DNA from: Deltaproteobacteria bacterium | GTDB taxonomy: Bacteria; Desulfobacterota; Binatia; Binatales; Binataceae | Length of the DNA: 63,170 nucleotides | Direction: 5' to 3' | Assembly: GCA_003135855.1 (NCBI GenBank) | Contig: PNBD01000040.1 | Span: 1-63,170 of the forward strand | In this document: positions 46,421-57,840 of the stretch, in pieces | Layout: every line of letters starts with the position of its first letter | Numbering within the stretch: the first letter of the stretch is position 1 | Notes under the pieces: generated by a model | Database searches by the model: none | What the model was told of the DNA's origin: nothing | The model's input: only the letters and a program-made list of their open reading frames with translations | Program-made: the position numbers and the translations under genes

Positions 46421-49093
46421 ATGTACCGCCGTATGTACCGGACAGTCTGGCGTTGGTCAGTCGCGCTGGCAGTCGCGTTAAGTTTCTTCGGATCGGCTGC
46501 CGCCTCTGGCCTGCCCGTCATCAGTACTCATCCGCGCTTGCTCCTCACGCCGGCGATTATGAGCCGGCTCCTCGCCAAAAGGAATACGAACGATCCCGCC
46601 TGGCTGGCGCTCAAGGCACGCGCGGATGTCCTGACGACCTACACGGTGTTTCAGTACAAGTACGCAACCCGAAGCCAGGAGCCGGACAACACCATCTTTT
46701 ACGATTACCAGGGTAGTGGCTGGTTCGATGCGGTCATGCCGCTGGCGCTTGCTTACAAGATGACCGGCAATCTTGTCTACCTTAACAAGCTTCTGGCCGT
46801 CGCCGACGAGATGATCCGCGCGCAAAGCGACCCTAGCAACAACCCGCCCAATGGACTACCGCCGTTGCAACCTGACAGCTATTATCCGACGCGCTATCTC
46901 GGCTATGTGATCGGGATAATTTTCGACTGGTGCTACGATGGCTTGGGCCCGACCCGCAAGGCCAAGCTAGTTGCGCTGATGAACGCATACTTCGACGATA
47001 TGCGGGCCAACGCCTATCAGATCGATAGCAACGCGGACGGCAACTACTTCGGCGGTCATCTACTGTGCGCGGCGGCGATGGGGTACGCTTTCTTCGGCGA
47101 CAACTCGCGCGCCCAAGCGATGATTGATTTCTCGCGCATCAGGTTCGACGGTACGCCCGGCCTGGTTGCGACCTCCGATATCCCTAACACGCACTTCAAC
47201 CAGCTCTTTGACGGTGGTTTTCCGCCGGTAGTGGCGCTGGACTACAACGGTCCCAATATCACTGGCAGTCCTTTCCTCGGCGGATTCGATTTTCAGGGAT
47301 GGGCTTACGGTAGCGGCGAATACGATCGGATCATCGACTACCTCCTGATGGTTAACAGCGCCACGGGCGAAGACCTGCTAGGCAAGCATCTTGCCTGGTT
47401 CTCACAAATCCTTCACGGCGAGAAGCAGGCCTTGTTTCCCAATCATTTCGAGATCGATCCGTCCGGGGACTGGGGTGGAGACCAGGGCGCCGTGATCCCG
47501 CGCGGAGTTCCCAGTCGGCTCGCCTACGTCCTTGAGGGCACGTCGGACGGCCCGGCCGCCGAGCATTTCGCCACCTCCGAGATCGCGGAATCGACCTTTC
47601 CTGACGTAACTGTTTACCCACTTACCGAATGGGAGGATTTTTTCTTTAGCGATCCTACCAGACCGTCAACTGCAAGCATCGAACCGCTTTACTATAGTGC
47701 TTTCAGTCCGGCTTACCCTAAGGGCGGGCGCGGCAACGGCGCGGTTCCCTATTTCATAATGCGCAGTGACTCTGGCCCCGATGCGGTTTGGGCGTCGGTC
47801 CGGATGGCGTCTGAATACTACGATGACCATCAGCATCACGATGCCGGCACGATGACGATCGCGCGCGGCAACGACTACCTGCTGGTCGACGCCTCAAACT
47901 GGAAAGGACCGGCCGGCTCAGAGGGAATTGTTGGCAGTTCGACCGAAGCTACTGAAGCGGCATCCAAGAACACGTTGTCCTTCAATGACTTCGGCGATTA
48001 CATATACCCTGACGAGCAATACTTCGGAGGTCAGGGCGACTGGGGAATCGACCAGGTAGTCGCCGCCGAGCAGAACCCGACTTACACCTATGCGCGAAGC
48101 GACCTTTCTACCGCTTACAATCGGGCGTCCGATCCGGCGGATGCAGTCAATCGAAAACTGGATTTCTTTTACCGGAGTTTTCTCTATTTTCGCCGCGCCA
48201 ACCTGTTCGTTATCTATGACCGGGTGAAAGCCAAGCCGTCGACCAACTCAGCAGGTGCATATGACAAGCAACTGCGATGGCATCTGCCGAACCGGCCCAC
48301 CATTTCCGGCCAGGTAGCTACTGTCCAGCAAGGAAACTCGCGGCTCTACCTGCGCACGCTCTTACCCGCTATCGCGGCGATTAAGGTGGTCGATGAATCC
48401 AGTAATCCCGATCCCTGCGAGGGCGCGCCGCCCGGATGCACCAGCTATGGCGCCGACAGCGGCACCTTTCGAGTCGAGGTCCGCGATCCCAGCAACCCGC
48501 TATTCATTCCTTTCCTGACAATCCTTGAGCCGGCGTCGCTGCAGACACCTTCCACTGTGGCGACCAGCCTTAACTCGAACGACGGCCTGATGACCGGCTC
48601 GATAGTTGTCAGAACCGGCGCGACCTATGTGTTCCTTTTCAATAGCCAGGCGGGGCAGGTTCCGACGCCGGTCGCGAGCACTTCGTACGCGTTCAACCAC
48701 TCAGGCGCGAGCTATCACGTGCTCGCTGGAATGGTCCCGAACGCAAAGTACAAGGTGTTGCTTGCTGGCGGCGTGGTGCAGGTTGGCGAGGATTCGCAGG
48801 GCACCCTGGCAGCCTCGCCCGCCGGCGTCCTGTACTTCACCTTGCCGTTGGCGTCGACGACGCCGACGCCCACTCGCACTCCAACGCCTACTCGTACGCC
48901 CACTCGCACCGCGACTCGAACTCCTACAGCTACTGCAACCAAAACTCCGACAAAGACTGCAACTAAGACTCCGACATCCACAAAAACTGCAACCAAGACA
49001 CCGACCAAGACGCCGACCCCGACCAAGACCGCCACCAGAACTGCCACTCCGACTCGCACCCCCACGCCCACATCTACCCCGCCAAAGTCGTGA
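46421..49093 (+). CDS. secreted heparinase II/III-like (polysaccharide lyase-like) protein with a C-terminal Thr/Pro-rich tail
   Basis: 890 aa with a signal peptide '[17 protein letters not shown]'. It has an N-terminal alpha-toroid style ('[18 protein letters not shown]') and '[23 protein letters not shown]', typical of the heparinase II/III C-domain. The last 78 aa are T/P/K/R low complexity. Confidence 0.6.
48857..49090 (+). repeat. coding low-complexity (T-P-T-[RK]-T)n tract
   Basis: The tail reads [78 protein letters not shown] and runs directly to the stop codon. Confidence 0.9.
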
Positions 49094-49150: not shown

Positions 49151-51196
49151 CTAGGGCTTATGCGGTAGCCCGATCTGTGGCGTTTTCAACGGCGCCGCAA
49201 TGCCCACGAACTCTGTCACGCTGTTATTGCCGAAATTAGTGACCCAGAGATTCCCGGCACTGTCGATCGCGACGCTGAACGGCGTCAGAATGCCGGCGCC
49301 AGTGAATCCTGTCGTCGGCGATAGTGGGGCGCCGCCTCCAGGACCGCCCGCGCCTTTGAGTTCGCTGATGCTTGCGCCGTGATAATTCGCGATCCAGGCG
49401 TTGCCCGCCCCATCGATTGCGATTCCGCCCGGCGAAGTGAGCCCACCGCCGGTGTAACCGCCGTCGGGTGAGACCGCGAGGCCCTGGGAATTCAGTTGCG
49501 TCACGCTGTCACCGTAAAAGTTGGCGATCCAGGCGTTCCCAAACTGGTCGAGCGCGATCGCCTGCGGAAGATCGAGCCCGCCACCCATAAAACCCGATTG
49601 CGGTGATATCGGGCTGCCGGTTTGAGCAAATGCGCTCACAGTATTTGCACTTTGGTTGGCGACCCACGCCCCGCCGAAGGCATCGATCGCGATTCCCACC
49701 GGGAAATCGAGCCCGCCTCCGCTAAATCCCAGGGCAGGCGAAGCGGGCGCGCCGGTCGAAGTCAGCTTGGTAACGCTCGAATCGCCGAAGTTCGCAGTCC
49801 AGACGTTGCCATTTGCGTCAATCGCGATCGAGACGGGGAAGTCCATCCCACCGCCAGAGTAGCCGCTCGCGCCTGATTGGACGACGCCGTTCGGCGCGAG
49901 CTTGGTGACACTGCCGAGCCCGCGATTGACGCTGCTCGAGCTCTCCTGGTTGGTGGCCCAGACGTTGCCCGTGCCATCCACTGCAATCCCGAACGATTCT
50001 CTGAGTCCGCCACCGATGAAACCAGTCGCGGGCGAGAGAGGCGATCCCGCCGGTCCGAGCTTGGTCACGCGATTATTGTAATTGGCTATCCAGATGTTGC
50101 CGGCAGCATCGACCGCAAGATCGGTTGGTTCGCTTAGGCCCCCGCCAGTGTAGTTGAGCGTCAAGGTCCAGTCGGTGGGCGCCGTGGTAAGTGCCGGCAG
50201 GTAAGACGAGCTACCCAAGGCGGAGTTGAACAGAGCAGGCACGTTGCTGGCCGGATAGTGAGCGATATCGAGCGCTGCGGCAATCGTGTCGAGCGGCGCG
50301 CTGCCGCCTGGAGGAGTTGTGTTCGCAAAGAGCTTTGAGCATTGCGAGGAAGAAGCTCCTAAGGAGCTGACGCACGCGGCCAGAAGATCGGCGATCGTGT
50401 TCAACTTCGATGGGCTGTTGGCCGAGTTGGCAATCAGGGTCGAAACGTTACCGGTGGTTACATCGACCAGGTTGGCCACGGTCGCTGCGGCATTTTGCAG
50501 GCCTGGTGCTGGTCCAAAAATCTGTGTTGAGGCGGTGCTGAACTGCGCCATCGCCCACAGCGAAGCGGCGCTGGTGCGTTCATTGATGACTGCGGAATGG
50601 GCGAACTTCGTTCCTAACCCGAGCACGGCCATGAGCTTGATCGCCGCGTTTGTGCCGGGGCCGGCGTTTCCGCCGGATGCAACTGCATACAGGATCGCTG
50701 AGCCACCTGGGTTCACGATGCCGAATGAAGTGTGGCCGCCAGAATTGGTTGTCCCATTGCCGATCGCACTCGCTCCACCGGAATTACCAGCATAGACCGT
50801 AACCAGCGAACCCATGATGGGTTGCGATCCAGTCATCACCGTGCCGGTGAAAGTGGCATTGTAAACAATAGTGGGAGTTGCGCTTGGAGTCCGAGTAGGC
50901 GTTGCAGTTCGAGTAGGCGTTGCACTTCTAGTCGGAGTAGCAGTCAGCGTCGGCGATGCGGTGGGACTCGATGTTGAGTTCAAGACGCCGCTACCATGAC
51001 CCGTGGGCGTGAAGGTCGCGGTGGGTGTCGATGTGGGGGTCGGCGTCGCGGTTCCAGTCGCGGTCGCAGTGGGAGTAGTAGCCGCAAGGATGCTGCCTGC
51101 CGCGCCGAGGTTCCAGGCGAGTAGCGCGACCAGCGCAACACAGACCTTCGATAGCCCTCCAAACCGATGCTCAGGCGCCACTATTCGAACTAGCAT
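49151..51196 (-). CDS. secreted NHL-repeat beta-propeller protein with an N-terminal T/P-rich linker and a conserved about 240-aa module
   Basis: 681 aa with a signal peptide. It has six NHL-like blades ('LAVDAAGNIWIANY', 'GIAVDGTGNVWATN', 'SIAIDANGNVWTANF', 'GIAIDAFGGAWVAN', 'AIALDQFGNAWIANF', 'GIAIDGAGNAWIANY', 'SVAIDSAGNLWVTNF'). Confidence 0.8.
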   Translation of the reverse strand: MLVRIVAPEHRFGGLSKVCVALVALLAWNLGAAGSILAATTPTATATGTATPTPTSTPTATFTPTGHGSGVLNSTSSPTASPTLTATPTRSATPTRTATPTRTPSATPTIVYNATFTGTVMTGSQPIMGSLVTVYAGNSGGASAIGNGTTNSGGHTSFGIVNPGGSAILYAVASGGNAGPGTNAAIKLMAVLGLGTKFAHSAVINERTSAASLWAMAQFSTASTQIFGPAPGLQNAAATVANLVDVTTGNVSTLIANSANSPSKLNTIADLLAACVSSLGASSSQCSKLFANTTPPGGSAPLDTIAAALDIAHYPASNVPALFNSALGSSSYLPALTTAPTDWTLTLNYTGGGLSEPTDLAVDAAGNIWIANYNNRVTKLGPAGSPLSPATGFIGGGLRESFGIAVDGTGNVWATNQESSSSVNRGLGSVTKLAPNGVVQSGASGYSGGGMDFPVSIAIDANGNVWTANFGDSSVTKLTSTGAPASPALGFSGGGLDFPVGIAIDAFGGAWVANQSANTVSAFAQTGSPISPQSGFMGGGLDLPQAIALDQFGNAWIANFYGDSVTQLNSQGLAVSPDGGYTGGGLTSPGGIAIDGAGNAWIANYHGASISELKGAGGPGGGAPLSPTTGFTGAGILTPFSVAIDSAGNLWVTNFGNNSVTEFVGIAAPLKTPQIGLPHKP
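50870..51082 (-). repeat. coding T/P-rich low-complexity tract (aa 39-109 of the NHL protein)
   Basis: The tract reads [28 protein letters not shown]...[25 protein letters not shown]. It uses the same TPTRT motif as the tail of the convergent 890-aa protein. Confidence 0.85.
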
Positions 51197-51269
51197 GTCG
51201 CCTTGCTCGGTTCAGGCGCGATGCCGCCATTAATCATGAAACATTGACCGCCCGCTAGTCCCGACCGGC

Positions 51270-53270
51270 TCAGGGACCGATCGCCATCGAATAAGCACCG
51301 AAGATGGCGAAGAAGAACGGTGAGGAAACGTCTATTGCCGTTAGCGCGCCCAAAACGAAAACATGGTCGATCGTGAAGACGGATACGTTGCTATCGGTGT
51401 TGTTTGCGACGTAGACGAAGGAGCCCGTGGGATCCGCAGTTACCGAGGTCGGACCCGTGCCAGCAGTAAACGGCGAGCCGCTAACTTCCGTGAGAGCCTC
51501 GCTGCCTGGGTCGATCATGTAAGCCGAGACGTCGCTGTTCCCTTTGTTCGCGACGTAAGCAAACTCTCCGCTTGGATCGACCGTCACGGAGTTCGGAGCG
51601 AGGTCCGTTGGCACGGGGACACCTATCGTCGCTAACGCCCCGGTCGTAGAGTCGATGGTATAGGCCGAGACGGTGTTGTCGCCATTGTTCGCAACGTAGG
51701 CGAATTGGCCGGTCGGATCCACCGCAACTGAGACAGGGGCCGAGCCCGTGGCAAAGGGCGAACCGGTGACGGCGCTGAGCGCCCCGGTCGCAGCGTTGAT
51801 GGCATAGGCCGAGATATTGTTGTCGTTATTGTTCGTGACATAGGCAAACTTGCCGATCGGATCCACCGTAACCGAGCCAGCGCCGGAGCCTGTGGGAAAG
51901 GGCGAGCCACTTGCCGGAGTCAGGGCCCCGCTCGATGAATCGATCGTATAGCCCGAGACGCTATCATCGAGAAAGTTTGCGACGTAGACGAACTTGCCGG
52001 TCGGATCCACTGTTACAAAGTCCGGAGAACTGCCTGTGGAGAACGGCGAACCACTTACCGGACTCAGCGCTCCAGTCGCGGGATCGATCGCATATGCCAA
52101 TACAACGTTCAACGACTGGTCGGCGACATAGGCGAACTTGCTGGTCGGATCCACTGCAATTGAGCTGGGCGTTGAGCCTGCTCCTGTGCCGAACGGCGAG
52201 CCATTTGCAGGACTCATCGCTCCAGTAGGAGGATCGATCATGTAGGCTGAGACGCTGCTAGCGCCGGAATTTGCGACGTAGGCGAACTTGCCGGTTGGAT
52301 CCACCGCGACGGAACCAGGATTGGTGCCCGCACTGAAAGGCGACGTCACACTTATCTCGCCCAGCACTCCGCCTCCCCTGATATTGTAAGCCGAGATGTC
52401 GCCAGTGCCGAAGTTCGCGGCGTACGCGAACATACCGCTCGGATCCACCGCCACCGCAGCGGGTGCGGAGTCGGCGAAAAACGGTGAACCGCTTACCGCG
52501 GTCAGCGCACCGCTCAATGAGTCGATGGCGTAGGCCGATACGTCGTCGCTGCCGAAGTTCGCGACGTAAGCGAACTGGCCGGTCGGATCAACCGCGATCG
52601 ATTGGGGGGCACTGTCTGTGGGAACCATCGGGGTCAAAAAGAGTGTCAGCGCCCCGGTCGAAGAGTCGATCGTGTAGGCCGAGATGTCGTCGCTGCCGAA
52701 GTTCGCGACATATGCGAACCGCCCGCTGGGATCGACTGTCACCGCATTGGGTCCTAGGTCGGCGAGAACCGGCGAACCGCTTACCGGGGTCAGCGCACCG
52801 CTCACTGAGTCGATGGTGTACTCCGAGACGCTGCCAACGTCTGCGCCAATGCCGGTCCCGATGTTCGCGACGTAAGCGAACTTGCCGGTCGGATCAACCG
52901 TGACCGCGATGGGAACGCTGCCCGCGCCAACGGGCGAGCCGACTACCTGGGTCAAAGACCCGGTCGTGGAATTTATCGTGTAAGCCGAAACGTCGTTGCT
53001 GCCCGCGTTCGCGACATAGGCAAACTTGCCAGTGGGATCGACCGCTACCGCGGCGGAACCGGCGTCCGTAACATACGGAGAGTCGGCTATTTGAGTCAGC
53101 GTACCGGTCGCGGGGTCGATGGTGTAGCCGGCGACGTGAGTGTTCGCGTCTACGATGTAAGCAAACTTGCCGGTTGGATCAATCGCGATTGATTCGGCAG
53201 AGCCGGCGACCGTAATCGGTGAGCCGCTTATCTCAAACAGCGCACCGATGAACTGGTCAACTACATAGGC
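51270..53270 (-). repeat. array of about 13 tandem coding repeats of about 48-50 aa (propeller blades)
   Basis: The recurrent motif VDPTGKFAYVAN was counted 13 times in the translation. Confidence 0.8.
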
Positions 53271-54272
53271 CGACGCCTCACTGGAAGTACTACAGCCGCA
53301 TTGCGAGGTTGTCGTGTAGGCGTACACCGGACCACCTATCGTCCAGTTCGACGGTGACGAGAGAAGGGGTGGACTATAGATCACCTGCGGCGGCGCGAGG
53401 TTGAAGAGCGTCGCTCCCTTCTGGTTCACCACCGGACTGCTCGCAATCTCAAACGCGGCCAGCAGCGTGTCTCCGGCCGGACCGGTGTTGGCAAACAACT
53501 GCGCGCAGGGTGTCGAAGTCGGGCCGCTCGAGTTAACACACGCGGCCAGGATGTTGCCCAAGGTGTTGAGCGTTTCCAGCGTGATATGGATCGGCGAGCC
53601 AGGCGGTGGGGCCTTGGTGGTATGGATCGGCGAGCCAGCGGGTTGCCCGACCATGAATGCCGAGCCCTGCCCACTAACGACGTTCACCAGGTTGTTGACA
53701 GTCGCCGCATGGCGGACCAGTCCCACGGCGGCGCGAATGTCCAGGCACGTGCCGGTCTGATTGTTCCCAGTTATCGCGGTGCAGTTCACAAAGTCCATGA
53801 AATGCTGCATCGCGGCGGCCGAGGCAGCCGTGGTCAATTCGTCGATGTTGACAGATGCAGGGAAGTTGCAGCCTGCGCCCTCGCAGAACGGACCCGCCAC
53901 CGTCAGCAGCAGGATTGCGCTGTTGACGCCTCCGCCAGCATCACCACCCTTGGCCGTGAAGTAGATAATCCCACCGGCGGTCGGCGTGATATCGGGAATA
54001 ATGTTGAAGTTACCGTTCGAGTCAGTCGGCCCTGAACCGAGTTGAGTTGCATGGTCGCCGCCGGCTTCGTAAACGACCACCGTCGAACCTGCGATCGGCT
54101 GCCGCCCGCCCATCGCTTGCCCTGCGAGCCTTATGCGATGCTGCGCCCGGCCTGCGGCGGCACTACCCGCACTTCCACCCCCGCCAGTGCATCCTGCGGC
54201 GAGCATCAACGTCAGCAGCCAAATGGGAGCTTTGTGTCCGCCGATGAAGGAACCCTTTGGAAACGCAGCCAT
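51270..54272 (-). CDS. 1000-aa probable lipoprotein with about 13 tandem lactonase-type (7-bladed-propeller family) repeats
   Basis: It has the lipobox-like 'LMLAAGC'. Its N-terminal module is homologous to that of the 681-aa protein. Then come 13 copies of '[VI][AT]VDP[TS]G.FAYVAN....[VI]SAY.ID..[TS]GAL'. Confidence 0.85.
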   Translation of the reverse strand: MAAFPKGSFIGGHKAPIWLLTLMLAAGCTGGGGSAGSAAAGRAQHRIRLAGQAMGGRQPIAGSTVVVYEAGGDHATQLGSGPTDSNGNFNIIPDITPTAGGIIYFTAKGGDAGGGVNSAILLLTVAGPFCEGAGCNFPASVNIDELTTAASAAAMQHFMDFVNCTAITGNNQTGTCLDIRAAVGLVRHAATVNNLVNVVSGQGSAFMVGQPAGSPIHTTKAPPPGSPIHITLETLNTLGNILAACVNSSGPTSTPCAQLFANTGPAGDTLLAAFEIASSPVVNQKGATLFNLAPPQVIYSPPLLSSPSNWTIGGPVYAYTTTSQCGCSTSSEASAYVVDQFIGALFEISGSPITVAGSAESIAIDPTGKFAYIVDANTHVAGYTIDPATGTLTQIADSPYVTDAGSAAVAVDPTGKFAYVANAGSNDVSAYTINSTTGSLTQVVGSPVGAGSVPIAVTVDPTGKFAYVANIGTGIGADVGSVSEYTIDSVSGALTPVSGSPVLADLGPNAVTVDPSGRFAYVANFGSDDISAYTIDSSTGALTLFLTPMVPTDSAPQSIAVDPTGQFAYVANFGSDDVSAYAIDSLSGALTAVSGSPFFADSAPAAVAVDPSGMFAYAANFGTGDISAYNIRGGGVLGEISVTSPFSAGTNPGSVAVDPTGKFAYVANSGASSVSAYMIDPPTGAMSPANGSPFGTGAGSTPSSIAVDPTSKFAYVADQSLNVVLAYAIDPATGALSPVSGSPFSTGSSPDFVTVDPTGKFVYVANFLDDSVSGYTIDSSSGALTPASGSPFPTGSGAGSVTVDPIGKFAYVTNNNDNNISAYAINAATGALSAVTGSPFATGSAPVSVAVDPTGQFAYVANNGDNTVSAYTIDSTTGALATIGVPVPTDLAPNSVTVDPSGEFAYVANKGNSDVSAYMIDPGSEALTEVSGSPFTAGTGPTSVTADPTGSFVYVANNTDSNVSVFTIDHVFVLGALTAIDVSSPFFFAIFGAYSMAIGP

Positions 54273-54285
54273 CTATACGAGCCTC

Positions 54286-54939
54286 CTACTCTGGAGCGGA
54301 CAGGTGCCGCACGGTGGTCAGATCGAGATCGGCCGCAAAGCGCTCGAATTCCGCGAGCAATCGCTGCTCGGCCAGCCTCCATCCATCGGTCGAAACCGCA
54401 CGTTCGATAACGACAGACACGGGCGTCGATGGATCGCGTCGCGGGCTAAGAAGCGTGTCGAGGTTCAGCTTTGGTAAGCGCCAACCCCATACTACAAGGG
54501 GTGTTTCGGTACATTCCCGGCTGAAGCACTCGGTCGCTGCGACGAGCCGGAGGTGATCGTTGTCGCGGAAAAACGAGATATCAAAGGTCGCGCCGGAGTC
54601 TCTCGTTCTAACTGCGCGCACCTGTTGCGCCACGAAGCTGGTGCCCTGAGCGAGGTAGCAGCCCGCGCCGTTATGCTCCATGCGAGAATGCAATTGAAAG
54701 TCGAGCTGCACATCGCTGGCACCGTTAGCTGCGGAATAGATCGCGCCCTGTTCAACCAGCGAGTTGCCGAGCTCGTTTCGCCAGCGCCGTTCAGTGATGC
54801 GATACGGACCGATCGACGACGGGAGCAAACGCGTCGAGCCGTCGAGTGAGTCAACCGGTGGCCGGAGACGCAAATGCCGGCTCTGTGACGCACCGAAGAA
54901 GGCGATCACGATCGCAAGCGCCAGAAGCCTGCGTTTCAT
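54286..54939 (-). CDS. EpsI-family (exosortase-associated) protein
   Basis: The start at ATG 54939 forms an ATGA overlap with the exosortase stop. It has an N-terminal TM 'LLALAIVIAFFG', 'LLPSSIGPYRI' and 'HNGAGCYLAQGTSF' (compare the EpsI HsPe.ClpgaGW motif). The 5' part of the 313-aa track ORF is spurious. Confidence 0.65.
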   Translation of the reverse strand: MKRRLLALAIVIAFFGASQSRHLRLRPPVDSLDGSTRLLPSSIGPYRITERRWRNELGNSLVEQGAIYSAANGASDVQLDFQLHSRMEHNGAGCYLAQGTSFVAQQVRAVRTRDSGATFDISFFRDNDHLRLVAATECFSRECTETPLVVWGWRLPKLNLDTLLSPRRDPSTPVSVVIERAVSTDGWRLAEQRLLAEFERFAADLDLTTVRHLSAPE

Positions 54940-55871
54940 CGGCGAAAGCCGAACCTTGGAATGTAGAATATCGATCCCGCGGCGAGGAAAAACAGCAACG
55001 CACCAATTATGTAATCGGCGGCGAGCGCGTAGTTTTGCAACGGCACAATGCGCAGCGCGAGCCAGTAGAAGAGCACCAGCGCGCAGAGCCTCAGCAGATT
55101 GAACAGATAGGCGGCCGCCACCGCGCTTGTGACGTAAGCGGCGTGCCATAGACGTGGCAGGTGGTACAGATGGCCGACAATCAATGCCAGATAGCCCATC
55201 GCCGCCGCACCGCGAAGGCCGTCGCACCCGGGCGCAATAAACATACCCAGCGCCGGCGAAAACATTAGACGCAACTGGTCGCCGCCCACCGGCACTGTCA
55301 GCATCGCGGCAAACACACGCGCGGTATGCGCGGCCACATATTGCAGGGGTAGATCAACCAGCGACTGGAAGGATCGCGGCACCGGATTGACGAATAGCAG
55401 CAGGGCCAGCGCGAACCATGCCGTGCGCCAGGCTCGCGTACCGCCGAAGAGCAGCACGATCCCGCTCGCGTATGCCCAGAGCTGAAGTCCTAGCGGGAGA
55501 AAGTTGATGCCGATGTGAGCGCTATGACCGTAGAAACTGAAATCGAAGTAGGAGTCGCTGGTTAGTCGGGCCGCAAGCATCGCCGCCACGATTAGGGCGA
55601 GCCCCCACCAGTTGCCACGCTGATCCCAAGCCTCGCCGCGCCACGCACGAAGAGCGAGCCACAAACTGACTGGCGGGAGCATGACACCAATCGAACGCAA
55701 ACCGTCGTTGGTCCATGTCTGCCAGAGCGAGCCCAACTGATACGCGAAGCACCACAAACCCACAGCGCTTAGTAATACGGCCGCGGCGAGGAGCCATCGC
55801 CCGCTAACGTCGCCGATATCGCGATGCGGATCAGCGTATGAAGGGCGAAGCTGGTACTCGGCCTGTTGCAT
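54936..55871 (-). CDS. exosortase-family transpeptidase (subclass not determined)
   Basis: The start is set at ATG 55871 (MQQAEYQL). The protein is polytopic, with a conserved Cys in 'FIAPGCDGLRGAAAMGYLALI' and Arg in 'FNLLRLCALV'. This is the exosortase/archaeosortase core pattern. Confidence 0.75.
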   Translation of the reverse strand: MQQAEYQLRPSYADPHRDIGDVSGRWLLAAAVLLSAVGLWCFAYQLGSLWQTWTNDGLRSIGVMLPPVSLWLALRAWRGEAWDQRGNWWGLALIVAAMLAARLTSDSYFDFSFYGHSAHIGINFLPLGLQLWAYASGIVLLFGGTRAWRTAWFALALLLFVNPVPRSFQSLVDLPLQYVAAHTARVFAAMLTVPVGGDQLRLMFSPALGMFIAPGCDGLRGAAAMGYLALIVGHLYHLPRLWHAAYVTSAVAAAYLFNLLRLCALVLFYWLALRIVPLQNYALAADYIIGALLFFLAAGSIFYIPRFGFRR

Positions 55872-55890
55872 CGATCGAGACTTGGCTCTT

Positions 55891-56103
55891 CTAAATGTCG
55901 CGCGCGGAATTCTTCTTGCGCGACTTGAAATACACCCGGATGAGCGGCAGCGCCGCCGCGGTTGCACCGACCAGGCCGAGAATCAGAGAAGGATTCTCCG
56001 GTGAAACAACGCATCCGTCGAAAGCGAGGGCGTTTGACGCGATAAAAACTCCAACTACGAGACCAGCGAAGGCTATCGCGAGTGCTGACGCCTTTCCTAG
56101 CAT
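55891..56103 (-). CDS. 70-aa protein made only of a signal peptide and a PEP-CTERM-like sorting signal
   Basis: ATG 56103 is preceded by GGGGG 7 nt upstream. The sequence is MLGKASALAIAFAGLVVGVFIASNALA | FDGCVVS | PENPS | LILGLVGATAAALPLI | RVYFKSRKKNSARDI. The stop lies 19 nt upstream of the exosortase start. Confidence 0.65.
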   Translation of the reverse strand: MLGKASALAIAFAGLVVGVFIASNALAFDGCVVSPENPSLILGLVGATAAALPLIRVYFKSRKKNSARDI

Positions 56104-56343
56104 AAATCGCCCCCAAACGTGTTTAAGCACTTTATTACGTGTAATCGCTAGCAAATCGAGCCTAATTAAGTAGCGAACAATTCATGGCTGCGCAAGCCAT
56201 TTTCGCGATGAAAAATGACCCGGAACGATGATTAGGCATGCTTTTCTTTCTTTTTTGGGCGCATCCCCGGCGCATTCGGACGGTTGATGGTAAGATTAAG
56301 AGATGCCGGATGTTCTTCGAGGAATGGAACGCAAAAGGGGTAA

Positions 56344-56664
56344 ATGTCCATGCTGAAACGAACCGCAATTCGTCGATTGCTGAAGGGCGTCGTGCTGAGC
56401 GTCCTGATGACGGGAACGGCCTCCGCTTTGAGAAGTGAAAAAGATTTGCCGGAAGCCAACGTAACGCCAGTGCAAGCGCGCGAAATCGCGCAGAAAGTAT
56501 ATCCGGGCAAGATCGTCTCGCAGAAACTCGAGGAGGAGTCCGGCGGCAGCGGACTGCGCTACTCTTTTGTCATCGGCAATGAAGAGGCGAAGCACGAGGT
56601 GGGTATCGATGCCAAGACCGGGGCGGTGCTGGAAAATTCCGTCGAGGGGGCGAATCCCGACTGA
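56344..56664 (+). CDS. PepSY domain protein
   Basis: 106 aa with a signal peptide. 'VTPVQAREIAQKVYPGKIVSQKLEEE...YSFVI...EVGIDAKTGAVLE' is a typical PepSY fold pattern. Confidence 0.7.
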   Translation: MSMLKRTAIRRLLKGVVLSVLMTGTASALRSEKDLPEANVTPVQAREIAQKVYPGKIVSQKLEEESGGSGLRYSFVIGNEEAKHEVGIDAKTGAVLENSVEGANPD

Positions 56665-56808: not shown

Positions 56809-57840
56809 ATGGATGTCGCTTTTCCCGCGAGACTGCGGAAATTCAGCTTCGTCGTCATCCTTCTGTTGTTGTTTGGTGGATGCGGTAGCGGAAACGGATC
56901 ATCCCCGGTTCCGCACGCGGCCAAGTTAATTTTCGTCGGCTATTTCTGCTTCGGCGCGCAGCCGTCGAGTGTCCGGATATTCGCCGCCGACGCTAACGGC
57001 AGCGCCGCGCCGCTCGCAATCCTCGGGGGCGATCAAACGGGAATTACCGCGCCTGCCGCCGTCGCCCTGGACAGAATTGATCAGCTCTACGTGGCCAACG
57101 CGGCAAGTTCGAATCCCGCGATTTTGGTGTTCGCGCAAGGCGCCAGCGGCAACGTCGCTCCCATGCGATCGATCAGCGGATCAAACACCGGACTCAACGC
57201 GCCGTTCGGCGTGGTGGTCGATCAGGCAGGCAATATCTTTGTCGCGAATGAGGGCGCGAGCAATGTGCTCAAGTTTGACGCTGCTGCGAGCGGCAATGTG
57301 GCGCCGGTCGCGATCATTGCGGGCGCCAACACGGGATTGGCCGCCCCTCCTTTGGGGCCATTGGAGATCAGCCTGGACATCCGTCAGCGAATTTATGTGA
57401 CCAACGTTCCCAACAACTCGGTTCTGATTTTCGCGCCTGATGCCGACGGCAACGTCGCTCCGATCGCGACGCTGGCTGGCCCCAACACTGGGTTAGACGG
57501 TCCGATCCAGGCGGTCTTCGGTCCGAGCGGCCGTATCTACGTGAGTGACAATACGCACTGCTTTCCGAACTGCACTGGTGCGGAGCCGTTCGCGATCACC
57601 GTCTATAAACGGCACGCGAGTGGAGATGCCGTCCCGGTCAGGACCATTACTGGAAGCAACACGCACCTGTTCCTGCCGGCGGGAATCGCGGTGGACGACA
57701 CGGAGCAGATTTACGCCGCCAATCAAAAAGATAACAGCGTGCAGATTTTCCCTCGCGGCAGCGATGGCAACGTCGCGCCAAGGATTATCGCGGGCTCCAA
57801 TCCGAATGTTTGCGTCGCGCGATCGCTCGCGGTGGACTAA
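56809..57840 (+). CDS. six-bladed beta-propeller lipoprotein (NHL-like)
   Basis: 343 aa with the lipobox-like 'LLFGGC'. It has six repeats containing '[AS].G[ND][VA]AP...I.G.NTGL' followed by 'G.I[FY]V[AST][ND]'. Confidence 0.75.
   Translation: MDVAFPARLRKFSFVVILLLLFGGCGSGNGSSPVPHAAKLIFVGYFCFGAQPSSVRIFAADANGSAAPLAILGGDQTGITAPAAVALDRIDQLYVANAASSNPAILVFAQGASGNVAPMRSISGSNTGLNAPFGVVVDQAGNIFVANEGASNVLKFDAAASGNVAPVAIIAGANTGLAAPPLGPLEISLDIRQRIYVTNVPNNSVLIFAPDADGNVAPIATLAGPNTGLDGPIQAVFGPSGRIYVSDNTHCFPNCTGAEPFAITVYKRHASGDAVPVRTITGSNTHLFLPAGIAVDDTEQIYAANQKDNSVQIFPRGSDGNVAPRIIAGSNPNVCVARSLAVD

Follow-up and report, generated by a model that had tools for sequence, protein, structure and literature searches.

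Dedicated sorting systems, in which one enzyme serves one target, have been described as a concept (PMC3237569; bioRxiv 10.1101/2023.06.07.544157). Among the exosortases, the family formed by exosortase J (XrtJ) and its PExPT-CTERM target is catalogued in databases and has never been studied. In cyanobacteria, the beta-propeller proteins ScyD, ScyE and ScyF carry PEP-CTERM signals and are processed by cyanoexosortase B (PMC12188702). Here we describe an exosortase locus in a stretch of 63,170 nucleotides from a Deltaproteobacteria bacterium of the Binataceae (contig PNBD01000040.1), which we call the window. Five genes on the minus strand encode a mini-protein with a sorting signal, an exosortase, a protein of 217 amino acids (aa), and two large beta-propeller proteins of 1000 and 681 aa. 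Profile searches and comparison of gene neighbourhoods showed that this locus encodes a predicted dedicated XrtJ system, with a split XrtJ, a single adjacent PExPT-CTERM mini-target and propellers of a kind that usually accompany XrtJ.

The exosortase reached a whole-protein score of 264.8 bits against TIGR04199, the hidden Markov model (HMM) of exosortase J (cutoff 200), and matched PF09721 with an E-value of 4e-32. The mini-protein scored 42.8 bits against TIGR04200 (PExPT-CTERM, targ_of_XrtJ; cutoff 40), and another assembly of the same contig carries the identical gene with a precomputed match to PF27850 (Targ_of_XrtJ). Since both proteins are above the curated NCBIfam cutoffs, the scores identify the module as a member of the already curated dedicated exosortase J system. 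The positive control, Tunturiibacter psychrotolerans, gave 673 bits for its fused XrtJ and 83 bits for its mini-protein. The proteins most similar to the window enzyme (50-58% identity) are called exosortase J in JGI and NCBI wherever they are named. Scores above the curated cutoffs, together with a mini-ORF (open reading frame) conserved in 66 distinct sequences, are far beyond chance. An earlier note on this DNA had implied that the module was new, and had named subclass scoring as the check; by that scoring the enzyme falls in a subclass already described (TIGR04199), whose defining neighbour is this same mini-protein family (TIGR04200; PF27850). An alignment of 29 XrtJ sequences has D173, C216, Y255, R261, C263, D286 and Y287 as invariant polar residues; among these, C216, R261, C263, D286 and Y287 are family-invariant and all are present in the window enzyme.

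The exosortase covers only positions 4-270 of the 522 in the TIGR04199 model, and the 217-aa protein is collinear with residues ~323-524 of fused XrtJ (E 5e-8 to 7e-4). By homology, therefore, the window carries a split XrtJ, and the 217-aa gene is a free-standing copy of the C-terminal domain that is fused to the enzyme in most Acidobacteriaceae. XrtJ homologues occur in a short form of ~310 aa and a long form of ~520-550 aa, and the C-terminal, transmembrane (TM)-anchored periplasmic domain of ~220 residues (model ~300-522) is present in the window as a separate gene whose start overlaps the xrtJ stop (ATGA). A word-index homology search with the 217-aa protein found only two proteins. The profile of a 10-sequence alignment, run against 1.84 billion representative proteins, found only 264 relatives, which are either stand-alone (~200-240 aa) or form the C-terminal end of proteins of ~520-590 aa, as in fused XrtJ. 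Invariant in this alignment are P40, G44, Y68, H89, C94, G99, C138, C143 and F201. The AlphaFold2 model of the 217-aa protein has a mean confidence (pLDDT) of 76, and a search of the PDB with it returned nothing significant, only a weak PsbP/DcrB/SciW-like resemblance at E>0.03; for the exosortase, sequence search found no solved exosortase structure.

The 217-aa gene had earlier been labelled EpsI-like, and this label has no direct HMM support. Pfam and NCBIfam searches with the protein at E<=10 gave no match, including PF11984/TIGR02914 and TIGR04199, and the EpsI models (PF11984/TIGR02914) likewise gave none at E<=10 on two fused C-terminal domains. An identity as EpsI was rejected on these grounds and because the relatives are fused or stand-alone XrtJ C-terminal domains; any relation to EpsI would depend on one sub-threshold PF11984 match in one of ten stand-alone homologues (E 0.002, 18.2 bits against a gathering cutoff of 26.1). 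The gene is better annotated as an XrtJ C-terminal domain protein than as EpsI.

To compare the other components, we used 80 XrtJ loci from GTDB species representatives, mostly Acidobacteriaceae, plus some "Gammaproteobacteria", Binataceae and Kiritimatiellae metagenome-assembled genomes (MAGs), and searched all their ORFs by BLAST with the window proteins. The mini-protein has the tripartite architecture of real sorting signals. Its signal peptide (MLGKASALAIAFAGLVVGVFIASNALA, ending ...SNALA) is followed by a 12-residue core (FDGCVVSPENPS; F-D-G-C-V-V-S-P-E-N-P-S), a hydrophobic helix (LILGLVGATAAALPLI) and a basic tail (RVYFKSRKKNSARDI). The sources searched for the mini-gene numbered 83, made up of the window, its own contig in two copies and the 80 related loci. 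An HMM built from regex-selected seeds found the gene in 68 of them. Across 66 unique homologues, the logo shows S-P-E and the following P(+4) in 100%, C(-3) in 98%, T(+5) in 97% and G(-4) in 92%. The window target has Ser for Thr at +5, as do 3% of the homologues. The residues A-Q stand directly before the core in about 70% of the 66 homologues and mark a likely signal peptidase I site. The stretch from the signal-peptide cut to the SPE motif is usually just 5-7 residues long, so that the target appears effectively without a passenger, and ~8-10 residues remain ahead of the presumed cleavage site once the signal peptide is removed. In some homologues the spacer before the Cys is longer (e.g. 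loci L029, L055 and L056). Because the C-x-x-S-P-E-x-P-T unit stays constant while this spacer varies, the invariant Cys is, on the alignment, part of the functional motif. Two mini-genes occur in some related loci (L006, L012). Within the 63-kb window the mini-protein is the sole protein with such a tail.

Linkage was counted in the 58 XrtJ loci whose flanks span 3 kb or more to either side. The mini-gene lies within 3 kb of XrtJ in 47 of them (81%), and a homologue of the NHL propeller, hereafter the partner, in 44 (76%; within 500 nt in 37); both are near XrtJ in 43 (74%). Homologues of the 681-aa protein (36-48% identity over ~100-681) directly adjoin XrtJ in most of the 80 loci. Two gene orders are common, mini-NHL-XrtJ in 18 loci and mini-XrtJ-NHL in 16. 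All-against-all clustering of the neighbours in 81 sources (the 80 related loci and the window) recovered XrtJ in 79 and the propeller family in 68, at a median distance of 132 nt. There was no other broadly conserved neighbour family in these sources, all others being found in at most 19 loci. The link between exosortase and propellers to which the earlier note had drawn attention is real and conserved.

The same counts bear on a more conventional account of the locus, a classical PEP-CTERM/XrtA-type sorting system with many cargo proteins elsewhere and an exopolysaccharide (EPS) locus, in which mini-protein and propellers would be incidental neighbours. The enzyme does belong to the exosortase superfamily (PF09721), and a lipopolysaccharide (LPS)-core cluster is found 10-35 kb away. 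Against this, XrtA scores 40.3 bits (cutoff 208), XrtB 32.9 (cutoff 275) and the next best subclass model, XrtW, 46 (cutoff 425); all the non-XrtJ models lie at 21-46 bits against cutoffs of 208-425, while XrtJ passes. In addition, 81% of the loci have the mini-target near XrtJ and 76% the propeller, and the 63 kb are without EPS export or polymerase genes and without a second PEP-CTERM tail. When all six frames of the window were scanned for a PEP-like motif with a hydrophobic run and a basic tail behind it, the mini-protein was the sole match. This agrees with the earlier observations that none of the four large secreted proteins (1000, 681, 890 and 343 aa) has a PEP-like tail and that the only recognisable sorting signal is on the mini-protein. 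The annotated parts of the window showed no genes of Wzx/Wzy/Wzz type, in line with the statement that no Wzx/Wzy or chain-length genes lie next to the exosortase. Classical sorting is thus very improbable, and the view of a dedicated module, with one exosortase and a single tiny substrate, rather than an EPS-linked PEP-CTERM system with many cargo proteins, is supported.

Several individual loci show variations on this arrangement. In an uncultured Gammaproteobacteria MAG (L006, CAZKOE010000004.1, 4397-19476) a window-like arrangement is expanded on one strand: there are two mini-genes, XrtJ is split, its C-terminal domain having a gene of its own, and the partners number four of NHL type and one, of 1031 aa, of lactonase type. 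In Tunturiibacter lichenicola strain MP8S11 (NZ_CP132945.1) the module, composed of mini-gene, fused XrtJ and a divergent NHL partner, is found on a 756-kb plasmid and not on the chromosome. On two metagenome contigs (L131, 7149-7343, and L147, 6898-7326) an NHL partner is directly preceded by the mini-gene, and XrtJ is absent for ~7 kb on either side. Because these pairs stand without a nearby XrtJ, they hint that the link of target to propeller can be tighter than that of target to enzyme.

The two propeller proteins of the window are related to each other. The 1000-aa protein has a lipobox (LAAGC, Cys28) and repeats of ~48 aa with the motif D-P-[TS]-G-x-F-A-Y, and matches the Pfam Lactonase family (PF10282) with an E-value of 4.7e-82; the count of 13 repeats agrees with the roughly 13 blades reported before. 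The 681-aa protein is composed of a signal peptide, a Thr/Pro-rich linker, a transthyretin-like beta-sandwich, a helical bundle and 7 NHL-like repeats (PF01436, E 1.8e-16). The N-terminal domains of the two are homologous (29% identity over 45-678). The pair C275/C286 of the helical bundle is invariant in 64 partner homologues, and a helical-domain motif, NE[VLIR]T[TS].A, is conserved in the family. The AlphaFold2 model of the 681-aa N-domain has a pLDDT of 92 and was matched by Foldseek to transthyretin-like folds, a generic sandwich; the helical bundle had no match in the PDB, and the partner N-domain none in Pfam or NCBIfam. A permissive lipobox pattern matches 55 of the 64 homologues, and the 681-aa protein, unlike the 1000-aa protein and most partners, is without a lipobox. 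No partner reaches an NCBIfam cutoff, the best being ScyF with 54 bits against 350. The 1000-aa type recurs only in the split-XrtJ loci nearest to the window: it is full-length and downstream of XrtJ in L004 and L006, and in L020 two adjacent ORFs on the opposite strand match its two halves. Partners in the order mini-NHL-XrtJ (e.g. L013, 7904-9847, and L019, 7994-9913) have a poly-Gly run after the lipobox and then a conserved segment, C-T-P-S-x6-P-A-S-C-P-[SA]-R-T-P, whose Cys pair is absent from the window proteins.

No C-terminal PExPT or other sorting tail was found in any propeller partner homologue. A propeller carrying the signal in cis was considered for an apparent fusion in L067, and was rejected on finding an independent in-frame mini-ORF with its own signal peptide. 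That the partner never has its own C-terminal signal, though related cyanobacterial propellers have one, and that enzyme, target and partner are tightly co-conserved, would fit covalent tagging in trans, where an amine of the propeller resolves the XrtJ acyl-enzyme and the Cys-peptide becomes attached, as in sortase-mediated Lys cross-links. But no acceptor residue was identified in the propeller, paralogues of the partner outnumber the mini-proteins in several loci (e.g. L006 and L039), and transpeptidation has been demonstrated for no exosortase, which makes such tagging rather improbable. A disulfide anchor to the peptide Cys was also considered; the propellers offer no obvious partner residue for it, and the idea is weakened only.

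The structure closest to the 681-aa propeller is the ligand-binding PknD sensor domain (1rwi, E 8e-19). Together with a short and invariant core peptide, and with mini-gene and propeller pairs that lack an adjacent XrtJ, this could point to a peptide signal, in which XrtJ would free a Cys-containing nonapeptide, diffusible or displayed on the surface, and the PknD-like NHL propeller would be its receptor. The N-terminus of the peptide is Gln in many homologues, and a pyroglutamate there is possible. Kinases, response regulators and other signalling outputs are not among the conserved neighbours, though, and the partner, a lipoprotein, has no transmembrane signalling domain; for a pheromone, invariance across genera would also be unusual. 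We consider a peptide signal doubtful and quite improbable.

From the precedent of sortases, archaeosortases and exosortases, and from the anatomy of the proteins, we infer the following course of events for the dedicated XrtJ system. The mini-protein would be exported by Sec and cut by signal peptidase I after ALA, leaving a type I membrane stub of ~40 residues with C-x-x-S-P-E-x-P-[TS] at the periplasmic face. XrtJ, with Cys216 as the catalytic residue and Arg261, would then cleave at SPExP[TS], and the TM helix and basic tail would be removed. The resulting Cys-peptide of 8-10 residues may be passed to an acceptor and not simply discarded, with the C-terminal domain protein (invariant His89, Cys94 and C138-x4-C143) as a putative periplasmic module for handling substrate or acceptor. 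The processed peptide or its conjugate would finally work with the co-encoded propellers, which are usually lipoproteins, either as the ligand of a PknD-like sensor propeller or, in trans, as their anchor or tag. XrtJ thus probably cuts the tag and then either releases a short Cys-peptide or couples it, and this peptide would work together with the propellers. The explanation as a whole, a dedicated XrtJ system with cleavage and hand-over of the peptide, appears to us reasonably likely. A more specific version is tentative and less likely than not: a three-component XrtJ machine in which the sorting signal is provided in trans and the cleaved Cys-peptide is a covalent or non-covalent handle that anchors, tags or activates the PknD-like NHL lipoprotein.

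A number of observations weigh against this explanation. Cleavage, transfer and acceptor are all predictions by analogy. A Cys/Arg/His triad has been proposed for the exosortase superfamily (Haft 2023 preprint), and among the 29 XrtJ no exosortase-domain column has His in at least 60% of the sequences; the chemistry of XrtJ may therefore differ from the proposed scheme, and the missing His may be replaced, with D286 and Y287 as candidates, or supplied by the invariant H89 of the C-terminal domain. The conserved Cys columns of the partner beyond the lipobox Cys form three apparent pairs, with no clear unpaired Cys. In a reciprocal test starting from the helical domain of the partner in metagenome contigs, XrtJ was present in only 6 and the mini-gene in 8 of 18 full-flank loci, so that the propeller family extends beyond the XrtJ system. 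In seven of the 58 XrtJ loci, mini-gene and propeller partner are both missing. All seven (L015, L031, L045, L059, L071, L078 and L079) have a fused XrtJ, with no mini-gene and no intact propeller within ~9 kb, and no alternative mini-ORF was recognised near them. Co-transcription of the five window genes is suggested by their spacing alone, and a scan for consensus sigma-70 sites and terminators found no site in the 240-nt region upstream of the mini-gene, with results at or below the expectation from shuffled sequence. Finally, no genuine mention of XrtJ, exosortase J or PExPT-CTERM was found in the literature searched. One of the seven loci, L059, keeps an 86-aa remnant of the NHL C-terminus, and it comes from the same MAG as L068, so some genomes carry a second, orphan copy of XrtJ.

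Some of these points would suit a mini-protein that is a permanent small subunit, a pseudo-substrate or a regulator in the XrtJ active site, beside propellers co-located for other reasons such as lineage synteny or expansion of paralogues. The mini-protein has essentially no passenger, XrtJ is without the conserved His expected for catalysis, and the propeller family is widespread elsewhere, with 12 of the 18 full-flank propeller loci lacking XrtJ. However, conservation is strictest in the presumed cleavage motif and its Cys, the TM helix and basic tail behind them repeat the layout of true sorting signals, and the catalytic-type Cys and Arg are invariant in XrtJ. The propeller linkage spans two gene orders and Acidobacteriaceae, "Gammaproteobacteria" MAGs and the window, which goes beyond simple synteny. 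A non-cleaved mini-protein of this kind is therefore unlikely.

The layout of the operon is given in Table 1. By these coordinates, the mini-gene and xrtJ lie 19 nt apart, xrtJ overlaps the next gene by 4 nt (ATGA), and the two gaps that follow measure 13 and 73 nt. The earlier note had laid out these five minus-strand ORFs with the same coordinates, gaps and overlap, and all the details checked were correct. Independent gene calls on the source metagenome contigs (ENA ERZ27254121 k141_232102, of 133.8 kb, and the Logan assembly of SRR7151668) recover the same operon genes; the mini-protein gene was called on the Logan copy and missed on the ENA contig. The divergent layout suggests the intergenic region of Table 1 as a candidate site for the operon promoter.

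Table 1. Coordinates of the XrtJ operon and its upstream region in the window
Feature	Position	Strand	Supporting matches
Mini-protein, PExPT-CTERM target of XrtJ, 70 aa	55891..56103	-	TIGR04200, PF27850, logo of 66 homologues
Exosortase J (XrtJ), short form, membrane-embedded exosortase domain only, 311 aa	54936..55871	-	TIGR04199, PF09721
Free-standing XrtJ C-terminal domain protein, 217 aa, with N-terminal TM anchor and periplasmic domain of ~190 aa	54286..54939	-	
Lipoprotein, 1000 aa, with lipobox, N-terminal beta-sandwich/helical domain and 13 lactonase-type repeats	51270..54272	-	PF10282
Secreted NHL beta-propeller protein, 681 aa	49151..51196	-	NHL PF01436, PknD 1rwi match, homologues adjoining XrtJ
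Intergenic region, 240 nt, between the mini-protein gene and the divergent PepSY gene; presumed promoter site	56104..56343	.	

The neighbours of the operon encode a PepSY protein, an NHL protein, a permease, a Bmp-family protein, QueC and a protein of 890 aa. The PepSY-domain protein (106 aa, 56344-56664, plus strand) is transcribed divergently from the operon. It is followed by the 343-aa NHL protein (56809-57840, plus strand), which resembles ScyD/E with 43 bits and ScyF with 39 bits, both below cutoff. These two genes are not conserved beside XrtJ in the other loci. The 890-aa protein (46421-49093, plus strand) is without a Pfam match and has a sub-threshold score of 25 bits for heparin lyase HepB; none of the 80 XrtJ loci has a homologue of it. 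An LPS-core/lipid A cluster occupies positions ~17000-40500, ~10-35 kb from the operon and with unrelated genes between. It contains LpxB, a WaaA-like Kdo transferase, a GT9 heptosyltransferase, a lipid A acyltransferase and LptF/G, as well as three ArnT-like PMT_2 genes, a DegT aminotransferase, one GT2 and two GT4 genes, two Kdo-kinase-like proteins (508 and 707 aa) and two DUF374 genes. This cluster is not an EPS locus.

A passenger-less sorting-signal peptide at the head of an exosortase operon is already catalogued as XrtJ/PExPT-CTERM, and the existence of the system is no surprise to a specialist. To this the window adds, by homology, a divergent member with a split XrtJ. The description of the target is extended by an almost invariant motif with an invariant Cys, G-C-x-x-S-P-E-x-P-T, read from the alignment of homologues. 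The propeller family, mostly lipoproteins, is a putative third and uncurated component, whose linkage is quantified here. For annotation, NHL/propeller proteins beside XrtJ may be treated as an uncurated partner family, with the provision that XrtJ accompanies only about one third of the propeller loci. We know of no exosortase with a known acceptor or a demonstrated transpeptidation step. The XrtJ system is unexplained and experimentally attractive: its natural substrate is minimal, being a nonapeptide in which one Cys is invariant, only one partner family is conserved with it, and it is found in cultured hosts (Edaphobacter, such as E. aggregans DSM 19364, and Tunturiibacter, such as T. psychrotolerans X4BP1). 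Taken together, this opens its chemistry to direct tests by mass spectrometry and genetics. If the sorting signal does act in trans, the substrate of ~9 residues would be the simplest natural probe for an exosortase acceptor.

Compared with the XrtA/EpsH system with EpsI and PEP-CTERM (TIGR03109, TIGR02914/PF11984 and TIGR02595), the locus shares the PF09721 superfamily, the three-part signal and a periplasmic accessory domain after the exosortase, in the same position as EpsI. It differs in having one passenger-less target instead of many cargo proteins and no adjacent EPS genes. The single-target systems rhombosortase/GlyGly-CTERM and JDVT-CTERM/MrtJ likewise have adjacent genes for the enzyme and its sole target, and MYXO-CTERM, a Cys-containing sorting signal, likewise has an invariant Cys near its signature motif. 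Unlike the mini-protein, the GlyGly-CTERM, JDVT-CTERM and MYXO-CTERM targets have real passenger domains, and their enzymes are unrelated, being rhomboid or CPBP/Rce1-like proteases. The cyanobacterial ScyD, ScyE and ScyF proteins (NF035926, NF033206) are also NHL/beta-propeller periplasmic proteins functionally tied to an exosortase, and the XrtJ partners are weakly similar to ScyF (29-54 bits, sub-threshold). While the signal is on the propeller itself in the Scy proteins, in the window it is encoded by a separate mini-gene. The closest likeness is to XrtJ/PExPT-CTERM itself (TIGR04199 and TIGR04200; PF27850), with the same passes of the curated cutoffs, the target immediately upstream, and the same S-P-E-x-P-[TS] motif, invariant Cys, TM helix and basic tail. 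The differences are that the model is a fusion of 522 positions, whereas the window splits off a highly diverged C-terminal domain gene, and that the window target is an outlier, with 42.8 bits against ~80 in Acidobacteriaceae, Ser for Thr after the second Pro and Phe for Gln after the signal-peptide cut. The window further adds a 1000-aa double-propeller lipoprotein to the system.

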